A DNA stretch of 64,000 nucleotides from a virus: positions 1 to 64,000 of IMG/VR virus record IMGVR_UViG_3300028558_000022. One strand, written 5' to 3'. The notes beneath the pieces are model-generated. The model was not told where the DNA came from. It ran no database searches and worked only from the letters and a program-made list of their open reading frames with translations. Made by a program: the position numbers and the translations under genes. The number at the start of each line of letters is the position of its first letter. The first letter of the stretch is position 1. Below are positions 7,257 to 42,534 of the stretch, in pieces.

Positions 7257-7616
7257 ATGAGTGTTCTTAGCTTTGAGAAACCGAAGAAGGTCCGTCCAAC
7301 GTCTGAGCACAACGATTACTACTCGTCTGATTCTGGCGTCGCCGGTACCTACGTTCCCAATATGTCCAACGCCGACCGGCGCAAGTGGAAGGCCAAGCTC
7401 ATCGCAGGTAAAGACCCTCGTGTCGAGATTCGCAAGTCGATAGGACGCTCTCAGGTTCAGATCGTGATGGTCGTCCGCCCGGACTTCTCAACGTCGATAT
7501 CTGCAAACGGTCGCATGGACTTCACTTCTCAGGATTGGATCGAATTACTGCAAGCACGTAACGAAGCGTTGAGTCATGGGCAACTTACCTTGGGAGCTGA
7601 ATGGCAGACATCATAA
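7257..7616 (+). CDS. hypothetical phage protein
   Basis: ORF with GAGG RBS; GTYVPNMS..DRRKWKAK. Confidence 0.75.
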   Translation: MSVLSFEKPKKVRPTSEHNDYYSSDSGVAGTYVPNMSNADRRKWKAKLIAGKDPRVEIRKSIGRSQVQIVMVVRPDFSTSISANGRMDFTSQDWIELLQARNEALSHGQLTLGAEWQTS

Positions 7617-7864
7617 TCGCTTCGGCAAAGGTCGTCGGTATTAAAGAGATGACCCTAACGCCGACAGTCGAAGCACCCGATCCCAAGACGGTCGCGGCGT
7701 CTGAGTTACGAATTGAACCAAAGAATCACCCGGACCCAAGGATCAAACCGCACGGGACAATATGGGTTGCCCAGCTACTCCCTTACGGCGTGACGTTCGA
7801 TCTCGTACTTCGCGATCAGAACATGGTTCAGGAGCCAGCCGGGAGAAAGCTCCAAGATGAGTGA
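7601..7864 (+). CDS. hypothetical protein, paralog 1 of 3; C-terminus AGRKLQDE
   Basis: Shares the LPYG-x-TF-x-L-x-LR pattern with the next two ORFs. Confidence 0.75.
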   Translation: MADIIIASAKVVGIKEMTLTPTVEAPDPKTVAASELRIEPKNHPDPRIKPHGTIWVAQLLPYGVTFDLVLRDQNMVQEPAGRKLQDE

Positions 7865-8132
7865 AGAGATCAAAGTAGGCGAGTGCCGGATCATCAAGGT
7901 CGAAGAGGTCACTGCAAAAGGCGTGACGTTCACTCTGTCGTCCCTCGACTTCAGCGAAGTTGGCGCCTTATATCCTGCCGATGCCTTTCAGGGCGGTTAT
8001 GACAGCTCTCCTCTACGCAAATTGAAGATGAAGGCCGAGATTCCTTATGGGAAGACATTCGAGATCATTCTTCGCGAAAAGGAAAAGACGGTAGGCGGTA
8101 GTGGCGCTCGAAGGATACGTACCGATGAGTGA
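7857..8132 (+). CDS. hypothetical protein, paralog 2 of 3; C-terminus GARRIRTDE
   Basis: IPYGKTFEIILRE; translationally coupled. Confidence 0.75.
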   Translation: MSEEIKVGECRIIKVEEVTAKGVTFTLSSLDFSEVGALYPADAFQGGYDSSPLRKLKMKAEIPYGKTFEIILREKEKTVGGSGARRIRTDE

Positions 8133-8424
8133 TGAGGTTGTGATTGGGAAAGGTGTCGTAGCCTCTATAGCCGGTTCATACGGCCAAGACATGACGCTGG
8201 ATGTAAATAGAGTGACGAGTTACATACAGTTTGGCGGGAACCTCAACGATAAGATCGCGTTCACAAAGAGTTACGACGGTCAGGATCGGCTTTTGGGAAT
8301 GACCTTTCCCGGAAAGCTGGAGTTCGGTGAGGAATACGAGATCATCGCGCGTCGAGTGAAGAAGAACGTCCCGGAAGTCGGACAGCCATCCGGCCCGCGC
8401 ATGTTCAAAGAGGAATCGGAATGA
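8125..8424 (+). CDS. hypothetical protein, paralog 3 of 3; C-terminus GPRMFKEESE
   Basis: LEFGEEYEIIARR; start taken at ATG 8125. Confidence 0.75.
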   Translation: MSDEVVIGKGVVASIAGSYGQDMTLDVNRVTSYIQFGGNLNDKIAFTKSYDGQDRLLGMTFPGKLEFGEEYEIIARRVKKNVPEVGQPSGPRMFKEESE

Positions 8425-8993
8425 TTTGGTTTACGAGTGACGAACACTTTGGGCACAGGAACATCATCAAGTTCTGCAAGCGCCCTTTTACTGACCTTCG
8501 CGACATGCGGGATCAGATGATCGGTCGTTTCAACTTTTCTGTAGGCAAGGACGACACGACGTATCATCTCGGTGATATGTTTTGGCGGACGCTGGACGCG
8601 GAGTCGGCTATCTCCATTCTCAGGGAGTTGAATGGGAAGCACTACTACATTCGCGGTAATCACGAAGAGGTTTTGGACAACCATGATTCGGTGCGCTTCG
8701 CGTTCCACGGCGTTTATGATCGACTCCTGATCGAACCGCCGAACGGTCCGAGATACGGGATAGTTCTCGATCACTTCGCTGGTCGCGTGTGGCATCACAG
8801 CGACAAGGGTTCGTGGCAACTGTACGGGCACTCGCACGGAGAGCTGCCGGACGATCACAGCCTGTTGTCAATGGATGTCGGCGTAGACGCGCACAACTGG
8901 TACCCTCAGTCGCTCGACACGATTCGCGAACTGATGGGACGAAAGATCAAGTGGATGCAGAGGAGAATCGACTCCTTTCAGCCAAAGGCTTAG
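8421..8993 (+). CDS. calcineurin-like metallophosphoesterase
   Basis: DEHFGH, LGD, GNHE, GHSH and DVGVD motifs. Confidence 0.9.
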   Translation: MIWFTSDEHFGHRNIIKFCKRPFTDLRDMRDQMIGRFNFSVGKDDTTYHLGDMFWRTLDAESAISILRELNGKHYYIRGNHEEVLDNHDSVRFAFHGVYDRLLIEPPNGPRYGIVLDHFAGRVWHHSDKGSWQLYGHSHGELPDDHSLLSMDVGVDAHNWYPQSLDTIRELMGRKIKWMQRRIDSFQPKA

Positions 8994-9014
8994 TCACGGG
9001 GAGGCGGCGGACAA

Positions 9015-9956
9015 ATGGGGGAAATCTTAGTCGCCTCCCCTGAGGCGGTTGACGCTTACAAGACCTACCTGTACCGGCAAGGCCATACGGCGCTGGCGAA
9101 CAGCATTCATCCGGGCGAGCTGATTCCGACATATCAAATTGAGCAGCATATCAACGTAACTATCGCGTCGATCACGATTCTCAAAGAATTTGGGATGTCG
9201 CGCGGGGCTGAAGAGGCGAAGCTCGCCGGTCTGAAGAAGTTGCTGGAAGGTGTTGCCGGAAAGCGAACGCCGAGTAAGGAAGAAGAGGCACTCAAGGCTA
9301 AAGAGGCTGCGCTTCTGAAAAAGCTCAATGCCGACGCTCTCGCCGCGATGAAGGCGGTCAACAATAGCAAGACGGTAAAGGCAATCGAGTTAGCCAAGGC
9401 TCAGGCAGCCGCTCTATGGGAGAAGTACAACCCGGACCCTGACGCCAAGGCCGACGCGAAAGCTAAGGCAGCGGCATCAGATTTGATGGACAAGTTCGGG
9501 AACACTATAGCTGATCCTCAGAAGATCATTGGTAGCTACTTCAATAAACAGTTCGTACAAAACCTTAAAGCTCAAACGCCGCTTGGCAACAAGAACCCGA
9601 TCTTAATGGTGAAGCCGGGCACAATGGTCCCGGTCGAAAAGAAGGGCGGTCTCGCTTCGATTGCTGCCCTTCAAGTCGGGCGCTCAAAGATCGAGCAAGA
9701 GTTCATCATGCGGATCGGCATGGTATCAGACATGAACGTCGTGATCGAGCAGTACCGCTCTACGGGATGGGACACTGTTCGGCTTCTCTGTAAGAGATGC
9801 AGCGCGGTCCACGTATTTAGCGACGCCGCTTTTCTGGCCGGGGCCACTCAACTGACAGACGAAGCGGAGAAGTTTTGTAAGGCACATCGACACGAAGCAC
9901 CAAAGCCGGTCGTTGAGGCGCCGGTCGGCGGGCGCAAGTTCCGGGAGGATGATTGA
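9015..9956 (+). CDS. hypothetical protein with CxxC; C-terminus GGRKFREDD
   Basis: 313-aa ORF with GGAGG RBS. Confidence 0.75.
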   Translation: MGEILVASPEAVDAYKTYLYRQGHTALANSIHPGELIPTYQIEQHINVTIASITILKEFGMSRGAEEAKLAGLKKLLEGVAGKRTPSKEEEALKAKEAALLKKLNADALAAMKAVNNSKTVKAIELAKAQAAALWEKYNPDPDAKADAKAKAAASDLMDKFGNTIADPQKIIGSYFNKQFVQNLKAQTPLGNKNPILMVKPGTMVPVEKKGGLASIAALQVGRSKIEQEFIMRIGMVSDMNVVIEQYRSTGWDTVRLLCKRCSAVHVFSDAAFLAGATQLTDEAEKFCKAHRHEAPKPVVEAPVGGRKFREDD

Positions 9957-10321
9957 GAAAAGTATGGACACTAATTTTGATCGCGATCTTGTCCTGTCCG
10001 GGATATGCGAAGCCGAAACCGGCGACGAACTCACAAAGAGTTCGTGCTTCGTTTTATGCGGAGAAGTTTGAAGGGCGCCGGATGGCGAACGGCGAGCGGT
10101 TCCATGAAGACGTGATGACCGCCGCGAGCCGGGCGTTCCCGCTGGGGACGATCCTGCATGTGACGAACGTCGCGACCGGCGATTCGGTCGATGTTGAAGT
10201 CACGGATCGCGGCCCGTGGGACAAGCGGTACGGTCTCGATCTCAGCCGGTCCGCATTCTTGGCGCTCGGGTTCAAATCCCGTCAGGGGTGGGGATGGGTG
10301 ACGGTTAAAAAGGTGAGCTGA
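9953..10321 (+). CDS. rlpA: RlpA-like double-psi beta-barrel lytic transglycosylase
   Basis: Signal peptide; ASFY..GRRMANGE..MTAA..PLGT..V.VTDRGP..DLSRSAF. Confidence 0.9.
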   Translation: MRKVWTLILIAILSCPGYAKPKPATNSQRVRASFYAEKFEGRRMANGERFHEDVMTAASRAFPLGTILHVTNVATGDSVDVEVTDRGPWDKRYGLDLSRSAFLALGFKSRQGWGWVTVKKVS

Positions 10322-10510
10322 TGCCGAAGTACGGACTAAGCTCTTGCGAGAATCACGGTGAGGCCGTCGTTGCGTACCCTGTGTAACAAAGTCTTGATAC
10401 ATCACACGGACCTCGGTACACCGCTGCCCGCGCCCGTGAAGCTAGTTAAGACCCCCTCTCCCAAGGTCTCCGTGACTCCCAAGGGCCGTTTGTTCCGGGA
10501 AAACGAGTAG
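10321..10510 (+). pseudogene. small, probably frameshifted gene; downstream frame ends PKGRLFRENE
   Basis: The coupled ATG at 10321 gives only 21 aa. The +1 frame (GTG 10358 to TAG 10510) carries the C-terminal motif. Confidence 0.45.
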
Positions 10511-10856
10511 ACAACCCCTTCGCTGCGCTCAGATTTCCCTTTTCCAGAGACCCCACCCGCAAATACCCCACCAACTCATCTACAAAGTCCTACCTACAAA
10601 CTCTTTTCTATAAGTCCCCCGTATCTGTACGGACAAGGGACTGACCCCCTATTCACAAATGATTGATTCTAAAAAGGGCCGGGACTCCTAAGGGACTCCT
10701 AGCTCTTTTTTATTTGTACGGCTAACTACTGACCGGCTGCGGGCGTGTGCTGGCCGCGTCAGCCTCAGCTCGCGAGCGCACCCACCGGGGACTCCCCGGC
10801 CCCCGTCCGGGGCAGGGTTGGTTAGGGACGTTACGCTGAATCTAAAGGGGTTATAC

Positions 10857-10923
10857 TCGCGAAGCGAATACATCGGCGGAGCTGTACACCCCGGACCGGA
10901 TCGCATCGCGAAGCGAATACAAC
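10857..10923 (+). repeat. 16-bp direct repeat TCGCGAAGCGAATACA
   Basis: Copies start at 10857 and 10906; an inverted copy lies at 18989-19006. Confidence 0.85.
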
Positions 10924-11139
10924 GGCGCTCGCCGTATGTTATTGATTTTAAGCCGGATGGTCACCATGTCCGCAATATCATGTAATGCGGACAATGTTAC
11001 GACGCGTAACACTACACGCTGTAACGGCTGCACAGCTCACGGCCTAGCCGGGCGGTTATTCAACCCGGCCCGTTTGTTATCCGTTGCGCTTCGCTATTCG
11101 CTATGCTCCCCGTACTTAGTACGGCCCAGCGGTTACCGG

Positions 11140-11302
11140 CTTACGGTCTCACGGTCTCCGGCGTATGCTCTCAGCTCTTCCAGCTCTTACGGTCTCCGGC
11201 ATCCGGGGACGGATCGCCGGGCGTCTATACAGCGGGCGTACAGCGAACGCGGGCATCCGGCTTTATGGTCTCTTCTATTCCCCTTCTATGGTCTCAGCTC
11301 TT
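11140..11302 (+). repeat. cluster of short repeats (AYGGTCTC and CAGCTCTT)
   Basis: Five AYGGTCTC copies and three CAGCTCTT copies in ~160 non-coding nt. Confidence 0.7.
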
Positions 11303-11334
11303 ACACGGTCCGATAGAAAACGAACTGCAAAGAG

Positions 11335-11351
11335 TTTGACAAATTGTCAAA
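11335..11351. promoter_or_regulatory. perfect operator palindrome
   Basis: TTTGACAAATTGTCAAA; a TTGACA follows at 11369. Confidence 0.85.
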
Positions 11352-11433
11352 GATTCTCACAAAAGCTATTGACAACGGTTTTATTATTTGCGATTCTCTT
11401 GTCTGTAAGCAAATCCACACACGGGCGGACACA

Positions 11434-11601
11434 ATGACACGGTTTGAAAAGCTCAAGATATCGGCAAGTGTAGCGGGCGTCATTATCGGCACAATTGGCT
11501 GTATTCTCTTCCCTTGCGGTTTGCTCTCAGATAACGGCCCGGCAGCTCTAGCGGGCGGCCTAATGCTTTTAACCGGGTTCGTGTCCGCGTTTATCGACTA
11601 A
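11434..11601 (+). CDS. small two-TM membrane protein
   Basis: Start at ATG 11434; two hydrophobic segments. Confidence 0.65.
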   Translation: MTRFEKLKISASVAGVIIGTIGCILFPCGLLSDNGPAALAGGLMLLTGFVSAFID

Positions 11602-11654
11602 CACAAGCGGGCCGGGTTTACTCCGGCCCCATTCCCTTTTTGGAGGTTTTCTAA

Positions 11655-11867
11655 ATGTTCCGTATCAATTGGACAAATCACGGTTATAGCTCGCCGGATA
11701 CGTTCCACACTTTGCACGAAGCTATACAGCATGGGAAAAAACAAGCCTTTGACTTTTCCGTGTCCGATGGGTTCGGGCGCATAGCAGCGGCGGGCGGAGT
11801 TCTGAACGGCGTTCGGCTTTTCGGCGAGTACGATACGCGGGTAAACTGGCAGACCATACGGTATTAA
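11655..11867 (+). CDS. hypothetical early protein
   Basis: GGAGG RBS. Confidence 0.75.
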   Translation: MFRINWTNHGYSSPDTFHTLHEAIQHGKKQAFDFSVSDGFGRIAAAGGVLNGVRLFGEYDTRVNWQTIRY

Positions 11868-11915
11868 ACCCCGGCCCGGATCGCGGGCCGCATTCCACAA
11901 ACGGAGCTGATACAA

Positions 11916-12143
11916 ATGGCAACTTTGACAGTAAACACAATGCGGCCCAGCATAGGGCAAACCGTACTAGTACGTTTTGAATCAATCGCGGTTAAATGCA
12001 CAGTCACGGACGCTAAAAGCGCATACGGGCGCATACGTCTGGAAGTTCGGCCCGTATCGGGTACGGGGTCACAATGGGTCGAACTGGACCGGATCGCCGG
12101 GCCGGTAGAAGATGAACGGCCCGCGCGTATGTTCCGGGACTAA
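11916..12143 (+). CDS. hypothetical SH3-like beta protein; C-terminus PARMFRD
   Basis: GGAG RBS; D.K.AYGR.R..V.PV.G.G..WV. Confidence 0.75.
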   Translation: MATLTVNTMRPSIGQTVLVRFESIAVKCTVTDAKSAYGRIRLEVRPVSGTGSQWVELDRIAGPVEDERPARMFRD

Positions 12144-12181
12144 TCCGGGCGGCCCAGCTCGCCGGGCGGAGCTGAAAAAAG

Positions 12182-12235
12182 TTTGACAATTTGTCACGAA
12201 TTTTCTTGACTCGTTTTTATTATTCGCGATATTCT
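12182..12235 (+). promoter_or_regulatory. operator palindrome plus promoter
   Basis: TTTGACAATTTGTCACG, then TTGACT(12206)-18 nt-TATTCT. Confidence 0.7.
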
Positions 12236-12274
12236 CGGGTTGTAAGCAAATCCCAACTATTTGAGGTTCCCACA

Positions 12275-12610
12275 ATGGCAAACTGGACTAAGGAAACTCT
12301 CCGGCAATGGTTTCTGGACGCGGACCACGAAAACGTCAAGCATAGACTCGCGATGTCAAAAGCTCTTATGTTCCTATACGCCCGGCAAACGGCGGACGAG
12401 CAAGCGAGCGGAACCACGGCGCATGATAACGGGGCCGGGTTTTCTGGTATCGATGCGGAGTTTATGTCTAGTGTCGCGCGGGGCGTTCAGAAGTTCGGAA
12501 ACATGACGCCCGGTCAAGCCAAACACATCAAGGTCAAGCTCGCGAAGTACGCCGGGCAATTAGTAGAGTTTGCGAACCCAGCGGCCCCGGAACAAACGGC
12601 GGCGGCCTAA
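12275..12610 (+). CDS. hypothetical phage protein
   Basis: LYARQTADEQ...NGAGFSGIDAEF...KYAGQL; GAGG RBS. Confidence 0.8.
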   Translation: MANWTKETLRQWFLDADHENVKHRLAMSKALMFLYARQTADEQASGTTAHDNGAGFSGIDAEFMSSVARGVQKFGNMTPGQAKHIKVKLAKYAGQLVEFANPAAPEQTAAA

Positions 12611-12617
12611 CCCAGAT

Positions 12618-13204: not shown

Positions 13205-13223
13205 ACACACGGAGCTTGAGACA

Positions 13224-14279: not shown

Positions 14280-15818
14280 ATGGAATTTATCGCACAATTC
14301 AAGGCGGCCCGGCGAGTAAGTACGCCTCTCGTATCTATCCGAACCTTTGACGCGAAGTCCACAACGGACGCAATACGCGCGGCACTCGGGGAAAAGCTGA
14401 AAGATAATGCTTTGATTCTCTGGGACACAATGAACGGTATGCGGGCGCTAACGGAACGCGGCGGCGAAGAGCTTGCACACATCTTACAGGGTGCGGACCC
14501 AGCGGCGAGTATGGACCTTGCGTCAACTCTGAAAATGGCGGAAAACGCCCGGACTAACGTTACTCTGTTTTTGTCCAATGCACATTTATTCGTCAAGAGT
14601 GACGAACCCGCGATAATTCAAGGCGTCTGGAACTTGCGCGATAACTTCAAGGCAAACGGAAACATGCTCGTACTGCTCTCACATCCGGGCGCATCTTTAC
14701 CGGTCGAGTTGGTTTCCGATGTTCTGGTATTGGATGAACCCCTTCCGACACGGGCGGAGCTGGGCGCAATCATCGGTAACACTTTTAAGTTTGCCAAACT
14801 CGAAACCCCGGACGCCGGAACGCTGGAAAAAGCAACTGATGCCCTCATCGGTTTACCCGCGTTCCCGGCTGAACAGTCTACCGCGATGTGTTTGGACACG
14901 AAGTCTAAGGCGCTAGACGTGGCGGAACTTTGGGCGCAAAAAAGAGAGATCATAAGCCAAACCCCCGGCCTGTCAATGTGGACGGGTTCCGAAAAGCTGG
15001 ACGATATCGGCGGCCTAGAGTCCGTCAAGGATTTTTGCTCCGCCGTTATGACCGGCAAAGACGCGCCAAAAGTCATTATCTTTTTGGACGAGGTAGAAAA
15101 GCTCTTCGCCGGTACCGGTACGGACCTATCCGGCGTCAAAACGGAACTAACCGGCGAAATGCTCAAATGGATGCAGGATCGCGAAATAGACGGAACTATT
15201 TTTATCGGGGTTCCGGGCGCATCTAAAAGCCAACTTGCAAAGTCTTTGGGCGGTTCGTTCGGCGTTCCGGTAATTCATTTTAATCTGGCAGCTATGCAAA
15301 GCTCACTAGTTGGAAGCTCGGGCGCAAATCTGCGGGCCGCCATGAAAACGGTTGACGCAATCAGTGACGGGCGTATCTTTGCGATTGCAACGTCTAACGG
15401 TATTGATTCTCTACCGGCTGAGCTTCAATCTAGATTCCAGCTCGGGACGTTTTTCTTTGATGCACCGGACGCGGAAGAGCGGGCCGCAATCTGGGATATT
15501 TACCGGAACAAATACAGCATACCGGCTGAACAAAAGACGCCGGAGTCTAACGGTTGGACCGGTCGCGAAATAAAGGAATGCACCAAAAAGGCGTACCGGC
15601 TGAACTGGACGCTAGAAAAGGCGGCCCAGTACGTTGTCCCGGTCACGAAGTCTAACGCGGAACGGATAAACGGTCTCCGGGCGGCGTGCTCGGGTAAGTA
15701 TCTATCCGCATCGAAGCCGGGCGTCTACCAGTACACGGGCGCAACGGCGGCCCCGGTCCCGTCACACACGGTCGCGCATAACACGGGCGGACGGGTTGTC
15801 CGGTTTGACGAAGAATAA
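14280..15818 (+). CDS. Ycf46-like AAA+ ATPase with swapped Walker B and Walker A segments
   Basis: Degenerate N-terminal AAA (LPVEL..LP); DIGGL; FLDEVEK precedes GVPGASKS; ATSN..LPAEL..RF; WTGREI. C-terminus GGRVVRFDEE. Confidence 0.85.
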   Translation: MEFIAQFKAARRVSTPLVSIRTFDAKSTTDAIRAALGEKLKDNALILWDTMNGMRALTERGGEELAHILQGADPAASMDLASTLKMAENARTNVTLFLSNAHLFVKSDEPAIIQGVWNLRDNFKANGNMLVLLSHPGASLPVELVSDVLVLDEPLPTRAELGAIIGNTFKFAKLETPDAGTLEKATDALIGLPAFPAEQSTAMCLDTKSKALDVAELWAQKREIISQTPGLSMWTGSEKLDDIGGLESVKDFCSAVMTGKDAPKVIIFLDEVEKLFAGTGTDLSGVKTELTGEMLKWMQDREIDGTIFIGVPGASKSQLAKSLGGSFGVPVIHFNLAAMQSSLVGSSGANLRAAMKTVDAISDGRIFAIATSNGIDSLPAELQSRFQLGTFFFDAPDAEERAAIWDIYRNKYSIPAEQKTPESNGWTGREIKECTKKAYRLNWTLEKAAQYVVPVTKSNAERINGLRAACSGKYLSASKPGVYQYTGATAAPVPSHTVAHNTGGRVVRFDEE

Positions 15819-15864: not shown

Positions 15865-16305
15865 ATGAGCGCATACAGCGAAGTACAAACACAATTCACG
15901 GACGGGGAACTTCTGATAGAAGCTCTAAAAGAGCTGGGATACAACCCCGTCAACTGTATCGGCAAACCCGAACCCCTGATAGGTTATCAGGGGGATTACA
16001 GAACGGCGGACGGCGAAGGGCATACGCGCGACGCGTCAAAGGCTATGCGGGCGGACGTGATTATACCCCGGTCACAAGTGGGCGGATCTTCAAATGATGT
16101 GGGATTTGTCCGGGGTTCCGATGGGAAGTTTTCGGCGATAATCTCCGATTATGACTCGCGACGGCATAACGCGGAATGGCTTAAAAAGCTCCGCACGGCA
16201 TACGCGGAAAAAGGAATCTTGAAGCAAGCGAAGCGGGCCGGGTTGACTCTGACAGGGAAAAAGACCGTAAACGGAAAAGTTCAATTTCAATTCCTGAAAC
16301 ACTAA
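15865..16305 (+). CDS. DUF1257 (Ycf35-like) protein
   Basis: MSAYSEVQT.F.D...LIEALKELGY; L.GYQG; NDVGF; follows the Ycf46-like AAA gene. Confidence 0.8.
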   Translation: MSAYSEVQTQFTDGELLIEALKELGYNPVNCIGKPEPLIGYQGDYRTADGEGHTRDASKAMRADVIIPRSQVGGSSNDVGFVRGSDGKFSAIISDYDSRRHNAEWLKKLRTAYAEKGILKQAKRAGLTLTGKKTVNGKVQFQFLKH

Positions 16306-16356: not shown

Positions 16357-16545
16357 ATGGCGGGCGCTAAAACTATCACTGTAGAGCTGGACCCGGACAC
16401 GGCGTCAATATCGGTTGACACTAACGGGTTTCAGGGTCAAGGGTGTGACGCGATTCACAAGATGTTCGCGAACATCGGGACCGTTACGGCATCGAAGAAA
16501 AAGCCGGAATACAAACAGCAAACACTAAGCCGGGTTAAACAGTAA
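16357..16545 (+). CDS. DUF2997-like protein
   Basis: I.V..D..GF.G..C...KPEY pattern in the usual AAA/DUF1257/DUF2997 order. Confidence 0.75.
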   Translation: MAGAKTITVELDPDTASISVDTNGFQGQGCDAIHKMFANIGTVTASKKKPEYKQQTLSRVKQ

Positions 16546-16682: not shown

Positions 16683-17306
16683 ATGCTTATACACTCCAAA
16701 CTTGCAAGCTCTACAGTTAACGGCCCCGGAACCCGCGCGGTAATTTGGTTGCAGGGTTGCACGCTGAACTGTACCGGATGCTGGAACCCAAACACACACA
16801 AGTTCGACGCGTCTACTGATACGCCGGTATCGGAGCTTCAAACGTGGCTGCTAAACCTTGACGGCATCGAAGGGGTTACATTTAGCGGCGGCGAATCCTT
16901 ACAGCATGTTATAGAACTTTTACCACTTGCGAAGTTCATACGCGAAGTACGCCCGGAGCTGTCTATAGGCATCTTTACAGGGTACACGGCCCGCGAGCTG
17001 GAGACCGGGAACTGGCAGACGTTACACCCAGCCGGGGTTATGATTCCGGGTTCCGGCGAAGTTTGGGAAAAGTTCCGCGCGTATCTTGACTTTGCAGTTA
17101 TGGGGCGTTTTAACGCCTCAAAGCTCACAACGAAAAAACCGCTGTGCGGTTCGACTAATCAAGACATAATTTTGTTTACGGACCGTTACAACGCCGGGGA
17201 TTTTACGGCACAAGAAACCCAGATAACCATTGACGGGGACGGACTAGTCCAGATCACCGGGTTTCCCGGTCGCGAGTTTATCGAAGCTGTAAAGGGTATG
17301 AACTAA
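16683..17306 (+). CDS. NrdG-like radical SAM (4Fe-4S) protein
   Basis: NGPG.R.VIWLQGCTLNCTGCWNP, TFSGGE and GSTNQ. Confidence 0.9.
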   Translation: MLIHSKLASSTVNGPGTRAVIWLQGCTLNCTGCWNPNTHKFDASTDTPVSELQTWLLNLDGIEGVTFSGGESLQHVIELLPLAKFIREVRPELSIGIFTGYTARELETGNWQTLHPAGVMIPGSGEVWEKFRAYLDFAVMGRFNASKLTTKKPLCGSTNQDIILFTDRYNAGDFTAQETQITIDGDGLVQITGFPGREFIEAVKGMN

Positions 17307-18436: not shown

Positions 18437-18461
18437 CCCCGGCAAGCTCGCCGGATAGCAC

Positions 18462-18490
18462 GCGGGCCGGATCGCAACCCGGCCCAGCTC
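18462..18490 (+). repeat. 29-bp intergenic hairpin repeat, copy 3
   Basis: Identical to 13176-13204. Confidence 0.9.
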
Positions 18491-19495: not shown

Positions 19496-20707
19496 ATGAA
19501 CTCAGTCATTGTTACGACCGTCGAGTCATTTTTGAAAGCACTCAAAGACACACACATCGAGCGCAAGTCAACTATCCCGATCCTTCAGTACGCGAAAGTC
19601 ACCCCGGACCGGATTGTCGGAACTGATTTGGACTTGTCCACAAATGTTTTCTACGACGGCGAAGGGTCCGGCGAGTTCCTGATTCCGTACCGTCAAACTC
19701 TTGACGCATTGAGCGGGGAAAAGGGGAAACTGGTAATCGAGTACACGCCCGGCCCGGTCACGTACCCGAAGAAAAAGGACGAGAACGGATTCGAGACAGA
19801 CGAAGACGATACGGAAAAGGTTCCGTATGAGGCGGCGGGGTTCGTGTCCTTCACTTTCGGCGAATTGGTATTCCGATTCAATTCTATGACTCTCAAGAAC
19901 TTCCCAGTTCAGCCGGAAGTGTCTGGTACTACGGTCACCATTGACCGGGCAGAGTTCGCGACAATGCTTGAACGCACACGGTTTGCAATCTCTCGCGAAG
20001 AGTCACGGTACACACTGAACGGGGCGCTTTTCGAGATCGCGAGCGGTAAAGCTCGCATGGTTGCGACGGACGGTCACCGGTTGTCGCTGTACGAGTCCGA
20101 ACATCGTGCAGTGGATCAGGTGAAAGCTCTTTTCCCATCGTCTGCTATCGCATGGCTTGACGCGCGGGCCGGTAAGAGTGATGCCATTATAACCATCGGC
20201 ACCGGGGACAGTGAGTCATACATTACCGTGACACTCGGAGACAGGCAGCTTACCGCGCGTAAGCTCTCCGGGCAGTTCCCGAACTGGGAAGCGATTATGC
20301 CGACGAAGTTCCAAACGTTTGTCAATATCCCATCCCCAGACAAGACGGCCAAAACACTTGCACGCGTGGCGAAGTGTTCCGACGAACGGAGTAACGCGGT
20401 TCGCTGGGCGTTCGATCCGGTCGGGGGAATGATTCATGCCAAGTCAACCGAACGCGGCGAAGCATCAGCCAAGCTCGATTGCAGCGTAACGTTTGCACCG
20501 GAAGAACCAAAGACGAACGAAGAGACCGGCGAGACCGAAGAACCTGTAAAAGAGTTGTGCATTGGACTAAATGCCAACTACATACAAGAGTTTCTGAAGT
20601 TGGCAAAGGATACGCCCGCAATCATGTCACTGAGAGACGGCAACTCCTTCGCGATGTTCAGCGCCGGGGATAACTGGAAGTACGTTGTCATGCCGATGCG
20701 AATGTAA
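19496..20707 (+). CDS. dnaN: DNA polymerase III beta sliding clamp homolog
   Basis: STIPIL, GTDLD, FAIS.EESRYTLNG, VATDGHRL, G.FPNW and C-terminal YVVMPMR; AGGAG RBS before ATG 19496. Confidence 0.92.
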   Translation: MNSVIVTTVESFLKALKDTHIERKSTIPILQYAKVTPDRIVGTDLDLSTNVFYDGEGSGEFLIPYRQTLDALSGEKGKLVIEYTPGPVTYPKKKDENGFETDEDDTEKVPYEAAGFVSFTFGELVFRFNSMTLKNFPVQPEVSGTTVTIDRAEFATMLERTRFAISREESRYTLNGALFEIASGKARMVATDGHRLSLYESEHRAVDQVKALFPSSAIAWLDARAGKSDAIITIGTGDSESYITVTLGDRQLTARKLSGQFPNWEAIMPTKFQTFVNIPSPDKTAKTLARVAKCSDERSNAVRWAFDPVGGMIHAKSTERGEASAKLDCSVTFAPEEPKTNEETGETEEPVKELCIGLNANYIQEFLKLAKDTPAIMSLRDGNSFAMFSAGDNWKYVVMPMRM

Positions 20708-26809: not shown

Positions 26810-27337
26810 ATGCAACACCTTACCCGCGATGAATTTAAAGCCCTCGTTGGGGCAATCCGCGACCCTAAGCATCGCCTGATGCTGAAAGTGGGGTTCAATC
26901 ACGGTCTACGTGTAAGCGAGTTGACCGGGTTGACCGGAGCAAGTATCCGGGACGGTTACGTGACTGTGCAACGGCTCAAAGGTTCGATGAAAACAATCCA
27001 GCCGTACCAGTCCCACGAAGACCCTTTGCTCGATGAGGCAAGAGAGCTGGCAGACTTGGCCGCCAAGCTCAAGCCGAGCGAGCGTCTCTTCAACATCACC
27101 CGGTCGGGTGTGTTGAAGCTAATCAAGCGTGCTGGCAAACGTGCCGGGATTCCCGAGCACAAGCTGTTCGCTCACGTCTTGAAGCACTCCATCGCCATGC
27201 AAACAATCCATACAGCCGGGATCGAGAATGTCCGGCAATGGCTGGGCCACAAGAACATTTCCAGTACGGGCGCCTACCTCCGGGTATCAGACGAGGCCGC
27301 CGCGCTCGCTATCGGAAGGGCGATGACAATTGAATAG
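26810..27337 (+). CDS. small FimB/FimE-like tyrosine recombinase (catalytic domain only)
   Basis: GLRVSE, RLKGS, HVLKHS (K in place of R in HxxR), LGH and STGAY; 175 aa. Confidence 0.88.
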   Translation: MQHLTRDEFKALVGAIRDPKHRLMLKVGFNHGLRVSELTGLTGASIRDGYVTVQRLKGSMKTIQPYQSHEDPLLDEARELADLAAKLKPSERLFNITRSGVLKLIKRAGKRAGIPEHKLFAHVLKHSIAMQTIHTAGIENVRQWLGHKNISSTGAYLRVSDEAAALAIGRAMTIE

Positions 27338-36446: not shown

Positions 36447-36458
36447 CAACGGAGCGCA

Positions 36459-37370: not shown

Positions 37371-37372
37371 CC

Positions 37373-37564
37373 GTGACTGAAGCACAGCGGGAACCGATGC
37401 GTACTTATCTCCTCGACAAGCTCAAAGAAGCTCGGGAGGAGATAGGTACGGTCAACCCCCAGTATTCGTACTGGGACAGGCTTGTCGAAGTGGCGATGAC
37501 TGACGACGATCTCCTAGTCACGCTCGTTCGACGCGTAGAGCTGGACGGATTCAAAGGGGTCTAA
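37373..37564 (+). CDS. hypothetical protein
   Basis: GGAGG RBS, GTG start. Confidence 0.65.
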   Translation: MTEAQREPMRTYLLDKLKEAREEIGTVNPQYSYWDRLVEVAMTDDDLLVTLVRRVELDGFKGV

Positions 37565-37708
37565 ATGCCACTCGTAAAAGGAAAGTCCCGGAAGGCCATC
37601 GGTACGAACATCAAGCCCGAAGAGGCTGCGGGCCGCCCGCGTAAACAGGCGATTGCAATTGCACTCAGTAAGGCTGGCAAAGCAAAGCCGAAGCAAAAGA
37701 AAAGGTAG
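37565..37708 (+). CDS. small basic phage protein (MPL.KGKS...KQAIAIALSKA type)
   Basis: Manual translation, 47 aa. Confidence 0.7.
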   Translation: MPLVKGKSRKAIGTNIKPEEAAGRPRKQAIAIALSKAGKAKPKQKKR

Positions 37709-37713
37709 GCGCT

Positions 37714-38034
37714 ATGTCCGAAAACAAACGTCCAAAGCCTATCGTACACGTTGCTCATTCTGTGTACATCGACCCAATTCACTGTGACTCTACGGTGTCC
37801 TATAAGGTCGTCGAACAGGGCTTAGAAGATAAGCGGTATGCCTCAGGCGAAGTTAAACTGTCGGATTGCACCCGAACAATATCGTGGTATTTCGGGGACG
37901 GAGAGCATGAAGAATCGTTGGCAAAGATCAACCGGGCCATTGACGCCTTGAAAGCATTCAGAGTCGCCCTTCGTCACGCTCAGCTCAAGGTCAAGAGACA
38001 GCAACGTCTCGCGACAAAATCGGGAGAACAATGA
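37714..38034 (+). CDS. hypothetical protein
   Basis: LSDC.R.I.W motif. Confidence 0.75.
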   Translation: MSENKRPKPIVHVAHSVYIDPIHCDSTVSYKVVEQGLEDKRYASGEVKLSDCTRTISWYFGDGEHEESLAKINRAIDALKAFRVALRHAQLKVKRQQRLATKSGEQ

Positions 38035-38411
38035 GTCATTACGACGGATGGGTCGGCGTAGACCTTGACGGTACGCTCGCCGTATACGATCACTGGCGCG
38101 GGCCGACTCATATCGGCGCCCCGATTCCCAAGATGCTCGAACGCGTCAAGGGTTGGCTCGCTGAAGGTAAAGATGTTCGTATCTTCACGGCCCGTGTCTA
38201 CGCGCCAAAGGAACCGGTAACCGATCCGGCTGTACTACGGCGTCAGAACGAAGCGGTCGCCGCACTGATCGCGATTCGGGCATGGTGCGAAGAGCATATC
38301 GGTAAAGTGCTTCCCATTACCTGTACCAAGGATTACGGGATGGTTGTCCTCTACGACGACCGTTGCCGACAGGTAGAGCAGAACACCGGAAGAGTTATCG
38401 GAGAGGAATGA
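38031..38411 (+). CDS. HAD-family phosphatase-like protein
   Basis: GVDLDGTLA, IFTAR and K...LYDDR. Confidence 0.85.
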   Translation: MSHYDGWVGVDLDGTLAVYDHWRGPTHIGAPIPKMLERVKGWLAEGKDVRIFTARVYAPKEPVTDPAVLRRQNEAVAALIAIRAWCEEHIGKVLPITCTKDYGMVVLYDDRCRQVEQNTGRVIGEE

Positions 38412-38569
38412 AGACAGGTTTCGTTCACATCGGCATGACGCTACTGTGCGTACTTAGTACGTGCTACTTCGTACCTCAGCACTATTGGCCGCCAGTGATC
38501 GCCGGAGTTGTCATCTCGAACATTACCGGTTGGCTCTTTGAGCGCGTGGCAACGTATTACGGTCACTGA
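38408..38569 (+). CDS. small membrane protein
   Basis: Hydrophobic, coupled ORF. Confidence 0.6.
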   Translation: MKTGFVHIGMTLLCVLSTCYFVPQHYWPPVIAGVVISNITGWLFERVATYYGH

Positions 38570-38835
38570 TGCCGCTCACGCCTTTAATCTCTCGGGCGTG
38601 CTTCGCTCGTGACGGCTGGAAGTGCCGACACTGTAACAACCGCTCCGGGCTACATCCCCATCACGTCATCTACCAATCGCAACAAGGCCCGGATACGCTA
38701 GACAACCTCATCACCCTCTGCGCGAGCTGTCACTCGGGGCACCATGCGGGAAAGCTGGGCATAGAGATTACCGCGAAGCTGAAGGACAACGTGATTGTCA
38801 GATTCACTCGCGCGAAGGGATGGAAACCAACATGA
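38569..38835 (+). CDS. HNH endonuclease
   Basis: RD.WKC..C, HH and NLITLC..CH. Confidence 0.88.
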   Translation: MPLTPLISRACFARDGWKCRHCNNRSGLHPHHVIYQSQQGPDTLDNLITLCASCHSGHHAGKLGIEITAKLKDNVIVRFTRAKGWKPT

Positions 38836-39146
38836 TTAAGCTCGCCGCCGCTCTCTTGTTTGCCTTGCTACCGACGCCCGCACAGGCCCCGGTTCGCTCA
38901 GAGCCGATCAACCCAGCTCTCTACCTCACCGCAGAAGCCGCAATCATTACACAGATGGCAGAGTGGCACGTCCGCTACCCATACACGCCGAAGGTCTATT
39001 TCTACAACGTCATTAGCGACATGCAAAGGATGAACGTCGATCCAATCGGCAGCCCAGAGTTCAACACAGACGTGGAGAACCTTGAGGGCGATTTTACGTC
39101 ACTCGCGTTCTACATCGATCAGCACAAGGACAGCGAGACGATTTAG
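38832..39146 (+). CDS. secreted hypothetical protein
   Basis: N-terminal signal peptide. Confidence 0.65.
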   Translation: MIKLAAALLFALLPTPAQAPVRSEPINPALYLTAEAAIITQMAEWHVRYPYTPKVYFYNVISDMQRMNVDPIGSPEFNTDVENLEGDFTSLAFYIDQHKDSETI

Positions 39147-39259
39147 GAGAGTCATGGCAAAAGCGAGCGGTCATGAAGGTTGCGACTGGTGCTGCGATCT
39201 ATGCGGAGAGTGGGCGAACGAATGTACCTGCAATCCGAAGTGCATTGAAAAGGAATCTG

Positions 39260-39487
39260 ATGAAACGCAAATTCAAGAATTGGATCATCACGCTCATTGC
39301 TAAGCGAACGGGCTACACATACGGGGGATCGAGCAAGACTGTTGTGACAAAGGGATTCGGCCTGTTCTTCACAAAGTTTACAAGTCCTAGCGTTGCCGAC
39401 CCTGCCGGGATGATGGACAAGGGCGCCTCATTCCATATCAACAGTAAGACGTACCGTTTTTGGAAACCACGCAATAATGCAGAATAG
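39260..39487 (+). CDS. hypothetical protein
   Basis: AAGGA RBS, ATG 39260. Confidence 0.55.
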   Translation: MKRKFKNWIITLIAKRTGYTYGGSSKTVVTKGFGLFFTKFTSPSVADPAGMMDKGASFHINSKTYRFWKPRNNAE

Positions 39488-41210
39488 AGCATACCAAGAG
39501 AAGGCACACGAAGCGATTCATTCCGGCCTTCTCGCAAGTGTAAATCGACAACTCATCCAAATGGCAACCGGTACAGGCAAGACGGTTGTCTTCGCGCAAT
39601 TACCAGAGAAGTTGAAAGACGTTCTCCCCGGTAAGATGCTCGTACTCGCACACCGCGAAGAGTTAATCGATCAGGCTATCGCAAAACTGAAAGCGTCGAA
39701 TCCCCTTCTTCGTATCGATAAGGAAATGGCGGAGCACCGGGCGGACCCGAAGGAAGCAGACATCATTGTCGCGTCCGTGGCGACGCTGGGCCGCAAGGGA
39801 ACCAAGCGCATCGAAGGTTACGACTGGTCACTGTTTGACAAGTTCGTAGTGGACGAGGCGCACCATGCGACCGCATCGACATACGGCAACATCTTTGAGG
39901 CTGCCGGTCTCTTCAACGAAGGCAGCAACCGTTTGCTACTTGGCGTGACCGCGACGCCCCAGCGTGGGGATGGTCAGGCACTCGCGAAGGTGTTCGAGAA
40001 GATCACTTTCACGTACCCGATACGGCAAGCGATTGAGGATGGATGGCTCGTAGAACCGCGCGGGTTCAAGGTATCGACCAAAACGTCACTGGACGGGATC
40101 AAGGTCTCGAACGGCGATTACGATCAAGTGCAGCTCGCGAACACCGTCAACACTCCAGAGCGTAACGCCCAGATCGCGAAGGCATGGCTCGAACACGCGA
40201 AGGGCCGTCAGACCATCGGCTTCACTGTCGATATTCAACACGCTAAGGACTTGGCCGCAGTCTTCAAACACTACGGCATCAATGCTGAGGCGATATGGGG
40301 AGACGATCCCCAGCGCGAAGAGAAGCTCAAGAAGCATCGGGCCAAAGAGATCACGGTACTATTCAACGCTGCCCTTCTGACTGAGGGGTACGACGATTGG
40401 CAAATTGGTTGCGTGATCCTTGCCGGTCCCACAAAGTCCCCGGTGAAGTTCGCCCAGATGGTCGGACGCAGCACTCGCTTAGAGGACGGCATCGGCAACC
40501 TGATCGAAGCGAAGTCCGTTTATGAAGGAAAGACTCTCATCAAGGATGCTCTCATAGCCCTTGAGAAGGGCATTTACCCATTCAAGGTGGATTGCATCAT
40601 CATCGACGTTGTGGACAACAGCTCTCGCAACTCGCTTGTGACGCTGCCAACACTTCTAGGAATGAGCGCCAAGCTCGACCTCAGAGGTAAGGGCATCGTA
40701 GCAGCGGTCAAGGAACTGGAAGACGCCCAGAAGCAATACCCGCATATCGACTTCACAAAGCTCGATGACATCTCCCAACTTCAGGCACACATCGAGAATG
40801 TCAACCTGTTCGACATCAAGTTCCCGGCTGAAGTCGAGATGAACAGTAAGCTCTCATGGTATCCGTCACCTTCGGGTGGTTACGTCATGTTACTACCGGA
40901 CAAAGACCGTATCGAGATCAAACAGAATATCCTTGACAAATTCGATATATCTGCTACGATCAAAGGGAATCGATACAAAGGCGAGCGAGACACGATTGAA
41001 GCTGCTTTCGCGGCTGCCGATGACACGATCAACAAAGTAATTCCCGAAGCACTCAAAATCATCAGACGTGAAGAAACGTGGCATAAGCAACCGGCAACCC
41101 CGGCACAGCTTAAACTTCTCGCCAAGTTCTTCAAAGGTAAAGCCATTCCGCCTGACCTCGACAAAGGCAAGGCGAGCAAACTGATTTCCAGCTACCTTGC
41201 TGGGAAATAA
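39477..41210 (+). CDS. SF2 DEAH-box helicase
   Basis: ATGTGKT, DEAHH, TATP, LTEGYD and QMVGR. Confidence 0.93.
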   Translation: MQNRAYQEKAHEAIHSGLLASVNRQLIQMATGTGKTVVFAQLPEKLKDVLPGKMLVLAHREELIDQAIAKLKASNPLLRIDKEMAEHRADPKEADIIVASVATLGRKGTKRIEGYDWSLFDKFVVDEAHHATASTYGNIFEAAGLFNEGSNRLLLGVTATPQRGDGQALAKVFEKITFTYPIRQAIEDGWLVEPRGFKVSTKTSLDGIKVSNGDYDQVQLANTVNTPERNAQIAKAWLEHAKGRQTIGFTVDIQHAKDLAAVFKHYGINAEAIWGDDPQREEKLKKHRAKEITVLFNAALLTEGYDDWQIGCVILAGPTKSPVKFAQMVGRSTRLEDGIGNLIEAKSVYEGKTLIKDALIALEKGIYPFKVDCIIIDVVDNSSRNSLVTLPTLLGMSAKLDLRGKGIVAAVKELEDAQKQYPHIDFTKLDDISQLQAHIENVNLFDIKFPAEVEMNSKLSWYPSPSGGYVMLLPDKDRIEIKQNILDKFDISATIKGNRYKGERDTIEAAFAAADDTINKVIPEALKIIRREETWHKQPATPAQLKLLAKFFKGKAIPPDLDKGKASKLISSYLAGK

Positions 41211-41225
41211 GAGGAGATCATACTT

Positions 41226-41579
41226 ATGCGCATCGAAGCTACGCAACCATCCAAAACTCACGGCGGTTTCTACATGACGAACGGTGACAACTCAGCGCCT
41301 TCAAAACCGAAACGCCCCGTCGATATCACGGTTACAGAGGGCACGGCAAATGATCCGGTCGGTCCTCAAGTCGCTGACTTGAAGATCGGTCAGGCACTCA
41401 AGTACAAGCTCAGCGGTAATACTGTCGCACGGTTGGCCGGGAACGTATTCGTCAAGGTGTACAACAAGGGCACCTTACCCCCGGTGTTCTTCGATACGGA
41501 TCACGCCGCCTACTTTATCAAGTATGAGCCATCGGTCATGCTGCCTGAGGGTACAACGCTCACGATCAAGCTCCAGTAA
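41226..41579 (+). CDS. hypothetical protein
   Basis: GAGGAG RBS. Confidence 0.7.
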   Translation: MRIEATQPSKTHGGFYMTNGDNSAPSKPKRPVDITVTEGTANDPVGPQVADLKIGQALKYKLSGNTVARLAGNVFVKVYNKGTLPPVFFDTDHAAYFIKYEPSVMLPEGTTLTIKLQ

Positions 41580-41584
41580 CGGAG

Positions 41585-41601
41585 TTTGCCAAATTGACAA
41601 A
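41585..41601. promoter_or_regulatory. degenerate operator palindrome
   Basis: TTTGCCAAATTGACAAA, overlapping the next start codon. Confidence 0.6.
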
Positions 41602-41905
41602 CATTCCCGCTCTCAGCCGATACCAGTTCGGCTTACTCACACATACTGCGAAGGCAGACATTCCAGTGTTCCTCTTGGCAATGCCGAACCTGAAAGATAC
41701 GCCTTCGCAACGGTTCGGGCTAAAGGCCCGGCACAACGAGATCAAAAGCCTAATGGCGGCTGGTCTCATTGAAGAGGCGTCCGACGAGTTTCGCGAGCAC
41801 GTTCGCGAGCACGAGAAGCAGACCGGGCGCCGGTTCAAGGTATTCGGCCTCACCGAAATTGGTTTCAAGCTCTTTCAAGACACGTCAACAGAACACGTTA
41901 ACTAA
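41594..41905 (+). CDS. hypothetical protein
   Basis: GGAG RBS, TTG start. Confidence 0.7.
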   Translation: MTNIPALSRYQFGLLTHTAKADIPVFLLAMPNLKDTPSQRFGLKARHNEIKSLMAAGLIEEASDEFREHVREHEKQTGRRFKVFGLTEIGFKLFQDTSTEHVN

Positions 41906-41935
41906 ACACAGCACTTAACCACATCTGGAGGATTC

Positions 41936-42340
41936 ATGTCGCTACTCGCAGAGGAGACCCCTGTCTCTATCAAGAAATCCAACCATCAGGCGAACATCGT
42001 TCGCATCTCTGAGCTACTTCCCCACAACAACTCTGACAATCTCGCACTGGTCAAGATCGGCGGCTACCAAGTCGTTGTGAGAAAGGATCAGTTCAAGATC
42101 GGCGATTTGGCCGTATACATTCAACCGGACTCCGTTGTCCCGCAGACTGAGCCATTCCGTTTCATCTGGGAACAGTACGCCACATGCTCAGTGTGCGGCA
42201 ACGGGTGGGGCGCTCATAAAATGAGCTGCTACCCTGAATACCCCAGAAAGGCGTCTGAGGTTCCGGTAACCCGATGTACAGATTCAGTAATAGCTTTGAG
42301 CCGAATCAGGTACTTGAGATCGCGGTCCGAACTGCGTTGA
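41936..42340 (+). pseudogene. N-terminal fragment of a DRB0094-family RNA ligase fused to unrelated sequence
   Basis: H.NSD.L.L..IGGYQVVV.K..F..GDLAVYI.PDSVVP; no ligase catalytic domain follows. Confidence 0.65.
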
Positions 42341-42534
42341 AACTCTTCGAGCACATGGGCGAACAGCGAAACCGCACAATGCGCTATGTACATGAGAACT
42401 ACCTAGAAAGACTTTGGCGTGAACGGAATCATTTGCGAGTCCCGGCCCCGGTACAGACCGTACCCAGTACGCAAGGACGCTTGTTCAGAGAGGAAGACAA
42501 TGGTCAAGGCACTTCGTCGGTTACTGTCGCATAA
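42274..42534 (+). CDS. hypothetical protein with GRLFREED near the C-terminus
   Basis: ORF track. Confidence 0.55.
   Translation: MYRFSNSFEPNQVLEIAVRTALKLFEHMGEQRNRTMRYVHENYLERLWRERNHLRVPAPVQTVPSTQGRLFREEDNGQGTSSVTVA

Follow-up and report, generated by a model that had tools for sequence, protein, structure and literature searches.

A C-terminal peptide shared by a phage Cdc48/p97-like ATPase module and unrelated early proteins

Results and Discussion

We examined the first 64 kb (hereafter the window) of the 90,978-bp single-contig virus record IMGVR_UViG_3300028558_000022, in which nine open reading frames (ORFs) carry a common short peptide at or near their C-termini, after a disordered Gly/Pro-rich linker. 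In the spelling of this phage lineage the peptide consists of a small residue, Arg, any residue, a hydrophobic residue, any residue, and then acidic residues. Two of the carriers belong to a module that is present in phages and other mobile elements and is uncharacterised, comprising a Cdc48/p97-like AAA+ ATPase and DUF1257, DUF2997 and DUF3150-like proteins. Judged from comparison of homologous sequences, the tail is a family-wide feature of this conserved module, rather than a novelty of this phage genome. We lean slightly towards the view that it is the docking peptide of the module, with one common site, perhaps on the ATPase, that would serve a changing set of phage proteins.

Nine copies of the motif in the window

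The motif had been picked out in a sequence-only reading of the window, and the C-termini quoted there were all found at ORF ends (positions 7864, 8132, 8424, 9956, 10510, 12143, 15818 and 18436). The ninth copy, QGRLFREED in the ORF at 42274-42534, is followed by 11 residues before the end. Gene calls were simple ones made in this analysis. A loose form of the pattern, allowed up to 25 residues from the end, matched ten of the 768 ORFs of at least 40 amino acids found on either strand of the full 90,978-bp genome, namely the nine ORFs already named and one spurious antisense ORF. A strict form, [GAP]R[KLMRV][FLIV][RKQ]x0-2[DE] scored within 12 residues of the C-terminus, occurs nine times terminally and never internally in 134 likely proteins. 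Residue shuffles of the same proteins gave 0.075 terminal matches (maximum 2) and 0.87 anywhere; the strict pattern was derived from the same data, which makes the exact enrichment ratio optimistic. The terminal excess is far beyond chance.

Codons differ among the copies, as the sequence-only reading had stated. The motif Arg is encoded by AGA, CGA, CGC, CGT or CGG, and other positions also vary, which places the conservation at the level of the peptide. The description of the tail as phage-wide, however, overstates its spread, because the carriers cluster at 7.6-18.4 kb, in the early region, with one more at 42.3 kb. The plus strand from approximately 2 to 51 kb holds early and replication genes, and the minus strand holds structural genes. 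Coding scores are solid, between 15 and 65, for six of the nine carriers.

Conservation of the tail in orthologues

Orthologues of three carriers retain the motif at 31-60% identity, and the observation therefore stands. For the DUF3150-like protein, most of the 66 homologues retrieved from the database, down to approximately 44% identity, end in GRKFR or RKFxF followed by acidic residues, and some have an additional extension past the motif. Three orthologues of the 313-amino-acid carrier (9015-9956), at 31-48% identity, end in GRRFREDD, GRKFREDE and GRLFRDED after differing linkers, and relatives of this carrier in loci L048 and L056 are tailed too. In the related viral contig L001, orthologues of both the ATPase (at 54% identity) and the DUF3150-like protein are tailed.

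The only cultured relative that we found is the Tunturiibacter phage Tunturi_3 (PP885686.1), a 97.6-kb podovirus with an Acidobacteriota host (PMC11924767), whose gene order is common with that of the window phage. Its tails are on gp103 (the ATPase), gp96 (the DUF3150-like protein) and gp131, which ends in VRKIRLDNE. The last of these is the positional counterpart of the 313-amino-acid carrier, and both genes sit after a phosphoesterase gene. In the paper on the Tunturi_3 genome there is no mention of the ATPase or of a C-terminal motif (PMC11924767). In GenBank, gp96 (L043, 23696-24655) is labelled 'HNH endonuclease', a name unsupported in the window orthologue, for which Pfam yields DUF3150 only.

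The tail as a family-wide feature of the module

From the ATPase family we retrieved 150 representative sequences, one for each cluster at 50% identity, and 143 of these are full-length. Arg-x-hydrophobic occurs in the last 16 residues of 125 of the 143, compared with 36 (maximum 47) in composition-matched shuffles. The tail Arg, R505 in the window ATPase, is at least 90% conserved in an alignment of 121 sequences with a mean identity of 30%. One group of these ATPases, from Acidobacteriota, has the motif farther upstream, as GRRV[IM]R[DE]L, and then a second, different C-terminal extension of 14 residues, which indicates that a position at the very end is not required. This second extension has a conserved ending, ..GPLTVMPPSKSEV, and a subset of other ATPase tails (P0081-P0086, P0103, P0128, P0176 and others) has a second ending of the form ..K/R-G-G-[QETN]-A or ..G-[QRE]-A. 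These second endings may represent a second docking signal.

The partners of the ATPase were detected by profiles in 80 viral loci found via the ATPase alignment. DUF1257 is present in 73 loci, DUF3150-like proteins in 69, and DUF2997 in 72, the last by a profile built from positional homologues and hence partly circular; gene order is almost always the same, and the module as a whole is present in approximately 70 of the 80. In most of the loci that yielded both an ATPase and a DUF3150-like protein (55 of the 80 viral loci) each of the two is tailed, and these two proteins are the module's constant tail carriers.

In prokaryote genomes the module is kept in approximately 64 of 80 loci, with DUF1257 and DUF2997 in 70-72 of the 80. 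Nearly all of these loci come from Acidobacteriota metagenome-assembled genomes (Terriglobia, Bryobacteraceae, Solibacteraceae) with several module copies per genome, and the module is present in several phyla. One such assembly (CAWHRX01; loci L125, L129, L130, L131 and L191) contains at least five copies on different contigs, some of them several megabases long, which indicates that the module rides on elements that multiply within the genome, either prophages or other mobile elements.

A NrdG-like activase is encoded within the module in 64 of 78 Acidobacteriota loci versus 2 of 78 viral loci, and is a clade-specific accessory. No glycyl-radical enzyme was seen beside it in the module loci (16683-17306 of the window; L125-L204). 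We also considered whether the tail could be a glycyl-radical motif (R-V-x-G-[FWY]) for this activase and rejected the idea: in the tails Gly precedes Arg (G-R-x-F), Gly in this position is no commoner where the activase is present than where it is missing, and the activase is absent from 76 of the 78 viral loci.

The literature that we searched on Ycf46, DUF1257/Ycf35, DUF2997, DUF3150, Cdc48-like phage ATPases and Tunturi phages yielded no mechanism and no mention of the tail. The statement of the sequence-only reading that no described system matches the motif thus holds for this literature; the tail itself is not unique to this genome and is a widespread property of the module.

Spelling of the tail within and between loci

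The tail is spelled differently in different lineages, for example GRK[IVM]R, RKFDLE, R-x-I-S-x-E-D, R-x-Y-G, and forms followed by basic residues. No fewer than five or six different spellings can be recognised, each common to the tails of a locus. The similarity of the ATPase and DUF3150-like tails of the same locus (positions +1 to +6) is 5.61, compared with 0.33 +/- 0.73 (maximum 2.8) when partners are permuted among 46 unique loci (2000 permutations, a test that leaves shared ancestry in).

Other proteins in the loci follow the local spelling. Among 2,224 further ORFs there are 46 matches to the spelling of their own locus versus 18 to that of another locus. Extra tails include four of the GRKFRDE type in L048, three of GRKFKE-x-L in L056, and three of R-x-[VI]-R-[FL]-[DE]-D in L089. 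BLAST sorts the 58 extra carriers, drawn from many phages, into 43 clusters, so most carrier bodies are unrelated to one another, in agreement with the earlier claim. The number of carriers varies among related genomes: five in G002, three in G001 (partial), and only the two constant ones in G003, G004 and G005. The window phage, with nine, has an expanded set.

Structures of the constant carriers

AlphaFold2 (AF2) with the family alignment models the ATPase at a mean predicted local distance difference test score (pLDDT) of 94.8, with residues 491-512 (the linker, to about residue 504, and the tail) at approximately 50. Its best Foldseek matches are Cdc48, p97, Rix7 and NVL (approximately 570-600 columns, E to 5e-13, TM scores to 0.56), and a profile search of PDB sequences placed Cdc48, p97 and VAT at the top. 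These matches cover both halves of the protein, which marks it as a tandem D1-D2 protein. The N domain of p97 is missing, and the model begins with the D1 alpha/beta fold at approximately residue 3. D1 has no Walker motifs, and no P-loop occurs in the first 240 residues of the family consensus.

The order of the Walker motifs in the ATPase is swapped. At residues ~262-320 a Walker B block (..DEIEK.., then D.SG....WMQD) precedes the Walker A block (G.PG.GKS), and there is no Walker B between Walker A and sensor 1 (..ATCN), both in the window ATPase and in the consensus of 121 relatives. AF2 still models this domain at pLDDT >95. The swapped order is family-wide rather than a local rearrangement. 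Inteins with homing endonuclease domains (LAGLIDADG, HNH) lie inside the AAA domain of two ATPase homologues, P0138 (896 amino acids) and P0194 (810 amino acids).

The DUF3150-like protein is modelled at pLDDT 75, with a mixed core, long helices, and a disordered N-terminus and tail. Foldseek found nothing significant for this model, and a comparison with VIA-wide gave only generic helical bundles (residues 210-348, Z ~9), which is uninformative for helical proteins. Neither it nor DUF1257 has a sequence match in the PDB. The tails of both constant carriers are disordered in their AF2 models, as expected for a short linear motif.

A candidate reader of the tail

The sequence-only reading had proposed that the peptide could bind a single hub, such as a host protease or chaperone, or the phage AAA module. 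Comparative data point to the AAA module: the tail is family-wide on its ATPase, is shared by its DUF3150-like partner, and co-varies in spelling. Within the ATPase, the column of residue 93, in the D1 loop that leads into strand 94-98, has the top mutual information with the charge at tail position +3 among 455 body columns (z = 6.8 and 7.4 with 162 and then 231 ATPase sequences), having been selected from those columns post hoc. When residue 93 is acidic, tail +3 is basic 92 times and acidic twice; when residue 93 is basic, tail +3 is basic three times and acidic 18 times. With phylogenetically independent pairs, one run gave 8.3 versus 0.8 for residue 93 (median p 0.02); other runs gave approximately 5.7 versus 0.7-1.1 (p 0.07-0.125), and 0-0.3 versus 4.9-5.7 for basic residues (p ~0.06). 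At columns 340 (beside pore loop 1), 437, 287 and 348 the signal vanishes under independent pairs, and these were set aside as clade effects.

The same relationship extends to the partner protein. Position +3 of the DUF3150-like tail is basic in 17 of 21 loci with an acidic residue 93 versus 2 of 19 loci with a basic one. In a comparison over the same loci the ATPase column is acidic in 0.93 versus 0.12 of loci, and the best columns of DUF1257 and DUF2997 are weaker. We tentatively nominate the D1 ring of the ATPase, near residue 93, as the reader of the tail, while holding this to be less likely than not. With its alternating pattern, Arg-x-hydrophobic-x-hydrophobic, the tail would be suited to pairing, as a beta-strand, with an edge strand.

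The picture that we favour would be as follows. The ATPase and the DUF3150-like protein would carry a docking peptide, which in this phage has spread to six or seven more small early proteins, so that all carriers would be addressed to a single binding site inside the module. The ATPase could thereby hold, compete for, or remodel the carriers. As a best guess, the tail would be read by D1, the first, nucleotide-free domain of the ATPase ring, close to residue 93, and the six tails of the ATPase itself might occupy or regulate the same sites as its clients. The role as a binding peptide, the existence of a single reader, and the choice of D1 are all proposals drawn from the comparative patterns above. 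A more ambitious form, which we consider rather improbable, is a programmable address code of phages and mobile elements of soil bacteria, in which a lineage-specific, co-evolving peptide would plug an ever-shifting range of small effectors into the nucleotide-free D1 ring, the ring's own six tails would gate the sites, and early proteins would act as adaptors that deliver host targets for host takeover or counter-defence. Viruses would then have their own equivalent of the p97-cofactor network, and the site of the reader could be predicted from sequence (residue 93 and tail +3).

Weighing the docking reading against its alternatives

Several points weigh against a docking peptide read by the ATPase. 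The p-values of the independent-pairs tests (0.02-0.125) would fail correction for multiple tests, the choice of the residue-93 column was made after the fact, and the window ATPase itself has a neutral Asn at this position. The permutation tests of spelling do not separate co-variation from common descent. The R-x-hydrophobic core is lacking from the 16-residue scoring window in 18 of the 143 ATPase representatives. Three of the nine carriers in the window (10358/10370-10510, 11916-12143 and 42274-42534) have weak coding scores of 1.6-3.0; the motif is nearly absent from approximately 640 non-coding ORFs, which argues that these three are genes, and the first of them is probably real despite its weak coding potential. 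The AF2 monomer leaves the tail undocked on the ATPase (tail pLDDT ~50), and DUF1257 and DUF2997 are equally constant neighbours that could be readers instead. An adaptor formed by these two proteins, which would bridge the tailed proteins including the ATPase, is an alternative that we hold to be unlikely. These two untailed proteins stand beside the ATPase in most loci (72-73 of the 80 viral ones and 70-72 of the 80 from genomes), a single ORF in at least one locus (L124) matches both profiles, as would fit a complex, and a reader separate from the ATPase would account for the need of the ATPase to have a tail of its own; the undocked AF2 monomer also speaks for such a reader. The strongest charge-complementary column is nevertheless in the ATPase, with weaker ones in the two small proteins. 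The tail could also be an engagement or degradation tag by which the pore of the phage unfoldase, or of a host AAA+ protease (ClpXP or Lon, for example), threads the carriers for timed removal or remodelling. The tail is disordered, basic and hydrophobic, lies at or near the C-terminus, and is found on small early proteins, the ATPase is a Cdc48-like unfoldase by fold, and position 340, which flanks pore loop 1, has high mutual information with tail charge. We judge a tag of this kind quite unlikely: the position-340 signal is lost under phylogenetically independent pairs, a degron conserved family-wide on the unfoldase itself is hard to explain, and the tolerance of 11- to 14-residue extensions means that a free C-terminus is not needed. 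To our knowledge, the tail is also unlike ClpX signals of the LAA or MuA type.

Docking on a host hub (the sliding clamp, RNA polymerase, a chaperone or the ribosome), or on the phage's own DnaN-like clamp, seems very improbable. The phage does encode such a clamp approximately 1 kb past the last tagged gene of the early region, and one copy, QGRLF at 42274-42534, fits the clamp-binding pattern Q-x-x-L-F (the beta-clamp motif of the Q-L-[SD]-L-F type). The other eight copies lack the Gln and Leu of that motif, with G, A, P or K for Q and K, M, R or V for L. Only one of the three complete related genomes that keep the tailed ATPase and DUF3150-like protein has a DnaN-like gene, so the phage clamp is not the conserved reader, and it was rejected in this role. 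A conserved host hub, moreover, would not predict a spelling that shifts between lineages along with a residue of the phage ATPase, and the module spans several phyla. We give least credence to the reading that the tag directs packaging into virions, or that the peptide recurs only because gene ends carry a nucleotide-level element (promoter, terminator or ribosome binding site). C-terminal cargo peptides exist in encapsulins, and the nucleotides TTC CGG GA are common to four motif copies. The codons of Arg and other residues vary among copies, however, the sequences 3' of the stop codons of the tagged genes are unrelated, and orthologues with diverged DNA, at 31-60% identity, retain the peptide; a repeat at the DNA level was rejected on this basis. 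Co-packaging into virions, which the sequence-only reading had also suggested, found nothing in its favour: the carriers are early-region proteins and an ATPase, with no link to head genes.

Comparison with known systems

Docking by short peptides is known from several AAA+ machines. The cofactors of p97/Cdc48 dock via short linear motifs (VIM, VBM, and the SHP box on the N domain), and its C-terminal tail is read by PUB or PUL domains. The phage ATPase resembles p97 in being, by fold, a tandem D1-D2 AAA+ unfoldase with a disordered C-terminal tail, and here too we propose that short, partly Arg-rich peptides address many unrelated proteins. In contrast to p97, the phage ATPase has no N domain and no Walker motifs in D1, the motif is unrelated in sequence, and the same peptide is on both the ATPase and its putative clients.

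HbYX/GQYL C-terminal tails are found on the proteasome activators PAN, Rpt, archaeal Cdc48, Mpa and Bpa, where one C-terminal peptide on unrelated proteins, an AAA+ ring among them, is received by one receptor pocket. This arrangement is similar to the one envisaged here. However, the annotated parts of the genome revealed no peptidase partner, 20S-like or otherwise, D or E is the final residue in eight window tails while the ninth continues for 11 residues past the motif, none has a penultimate Tyr, and the phage motif tolerates C-terminal extensions of 11-14 residues. The XB tail of SspB binds the N domain of ClpX, and the MIT domain of Vps4 reads the C-terminal MIM motifs of ESCRT-III. In these cases, as would be the case in the phage module, adaptors or substrates are held at a non-catalytic domain of an AAA+ unfoldase by a short C-terminal peptide that follows a flexible linker, and several proteins share and compete for one site. 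The phage ATPase shows no homology to the zinc-binding domain of ClpX or to MIT domains, the unfoldase itself is tagged, and the reader is so far a prediction.

The module has the same three families in the same neighbourhood as the Ycf46/Ycf35 (DUF1257)/DUF2997 set of cyanobacteria and plastids, and the DUF1257 profile also matches the Synechococcus control genome. Unlike that set, the phage ATPase family has the Walker B block before Walker A, and a DUF3150-like partner and a shared tail are undescribed for the cyanobacterial proteins. Among phages, the tails that bind the T4 gp45 clamp and the acidic C-terminal tails of T7 gp2.5 and gp4 are likewise C-terminal peptides common to several phage proteins and directed to one phage-encoded hub. 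The hubs of T4 and T7 are replication proteins, whereas here conservation of the tails does not extend to the clamp, and none of the carriers is recognisable as a replication protein. By analogy, the tail system would in principle work like the short docking motifs of AAA+ proteins; it belongs to none of the p97-cofactor, HbYX, SspB and MIM classes.

The Ycf46/DUF1257/DUF2997 gene set has been without a mechanism for decades, and its phage version is unstudied in the literature that we searched. A shared, co-evolving tail would allow likely partners of the ATPase to be named in any genome from sequence alone, and the predicted contact between residue 93 and tail position +3 is specific. The small, fast-evolving early carriers are flagged as the likely working ends of the system. 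Experiments are feasible in a cultured pair, Tunturi 3 on Tunturiibacter psychrotolerans, in which the module is present with three tailed proteins. Should the tags direct proteins of host takeover to an unfoldase, they would add a new layer to phage-host interaction in Acidobacteriota, an abundant and little-studied soil phylum.

Features of the carriers and module genes

Coordinates of the tailed ORFs, the module genes and the clamp gene are collected in Table 1.

Table 1. Tail-bearing ORFs, module genes and the clamp gene in the window
Feature	Position	Strand	Tail and other features	Supporting data
Small early protein, 87 aa	7601..7864	+	AGRKLQDE	Coding score 15.4; no Pfam family
Small early protein, 91 aa	7857..8132	+	GARRIRTDE	Coding score 16.0; weak similarity to two neighbours
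Small early protein, 99 aa	8125..8424	+	GPRMFKEESE; alternative start 8101	Coding score 20.0
313-aa protein	9015..9956	+	GGRKFREDD; Cys/His cluster just before linker	Tailed orthologues
Short ORF, 46-50 aa	10358..10510 (or 10370)	+	KGRLFRENE	Coding score 1.6; no homologue found
Short ORF, 75 aa	11916..12143	+	PARMFRD; GC-rich hairpin 3' of stop	Coding score 2.1
Tandem D1-D2 Cdc48/p97-like AAA+ ATPase, Ycf46-like kind	14280..15818	+	GGRVVRFDEE	Pfam AAA
DUF1257 (Ycf35-like) protein	15865..16305	+	No tail	PF06868, E 2.4e-9, 37.8 bits vs cut-off 22.2
DUF2997-like small protein	16357..16545	+	No tail	PF11211, E 2.3e-4
NrdG-like radical SAM activase within module	16683..17306	+		Pfam Fer4_12; NCBIfam NrdG below cut-off
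DUF3150-like protein, 353 aa	17375..18436	+	AGRKFRDE; upstream TTG start 17327 possible	PF11348
DnaN-like clamp	19496-20707		~1 kb downstream of last tagged gene in 7.6-18.4 kb region	
Short ORF, 86 aa	42274..42534	+	QGRLFREED 11 residues before end; overlaps both neighbours	Coding score 3.0

The ATPase matches PF00004 (E 6.9e-12) over residues 307-358 of 512 and phrog_8638 across its N-terminal half, and the DUF1257 gene starts 47 bp downstream of its stop codon. For DUF2997, the match of 21.4 bits is slightly below the cut-off of 24.1, with profile positions 10-46 of 47 aligned. The DUF3150 match is marginal (25.9 bits versus a cut-off of 24.9) and partial (profile positions 42-164 of 257), and we therefore refer to the protein as DUF3150-like; several of its homologues bear a precomputed PF11348 label. 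Megablast of the module against GenBank phages gave zero matches. Membership in a defence system was considered and rejected, as PADLOC gave only weak P-loop-level matches to IetA, and NCBIfam likewise to IteA.

The three small proteins at 7601-8424, described as paralogues in the sequence-only reading, do have weak mutual similarity, but align at only 19-24% identity. The family of the 313-amino-acid carrier has a conserved Cys-x2-Cys ... Phe-Cys-x2-His-Arg-His pattern at residues ~265-300, also present in the L048 and L056 relatives, and this cluster is probably a zinc finger. A search of the ESM Atlas with this carrier returned no usable match.

Two further ORFs were rejected as carriers. 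The ORF at 38031-38411 ends in NTGRVIGEE and would be a tenth carrier, but its G002 orthologue has GRLVG and then continues without acidic residues. The match at 26810-27337 is a chance one, and the L002 orthologue has no motif.

Some carriers continue for 8-20 residues past the motif (the DUF3150-like homologues P0004-P0012 and P0025, the window ORF at 42274-42534, and L003 9956-10900). They mostly terminate in Ala-Ala, or Val-Ala in the window ORF, which is reminiscent of ssrA-type degradation ends. The ORF at 41936-42340, which has a PHA02142 OB-fold domain, has a low-scoring 3' stretch and overlaps 42274-42534 in another frame, and 42274-42534 itself overlaps 42500-42862. The region 41936-42534 may contain a frameshift or a sequencing error, or its genes may overlap tightly.

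GC-rich hairpin-like sequences at 12144-12185 and 18437-18480, with a common core GCTCGCCGG, abut the stop codons of two tagged genes. They look like terminators or copies of a repeated intergenic element.

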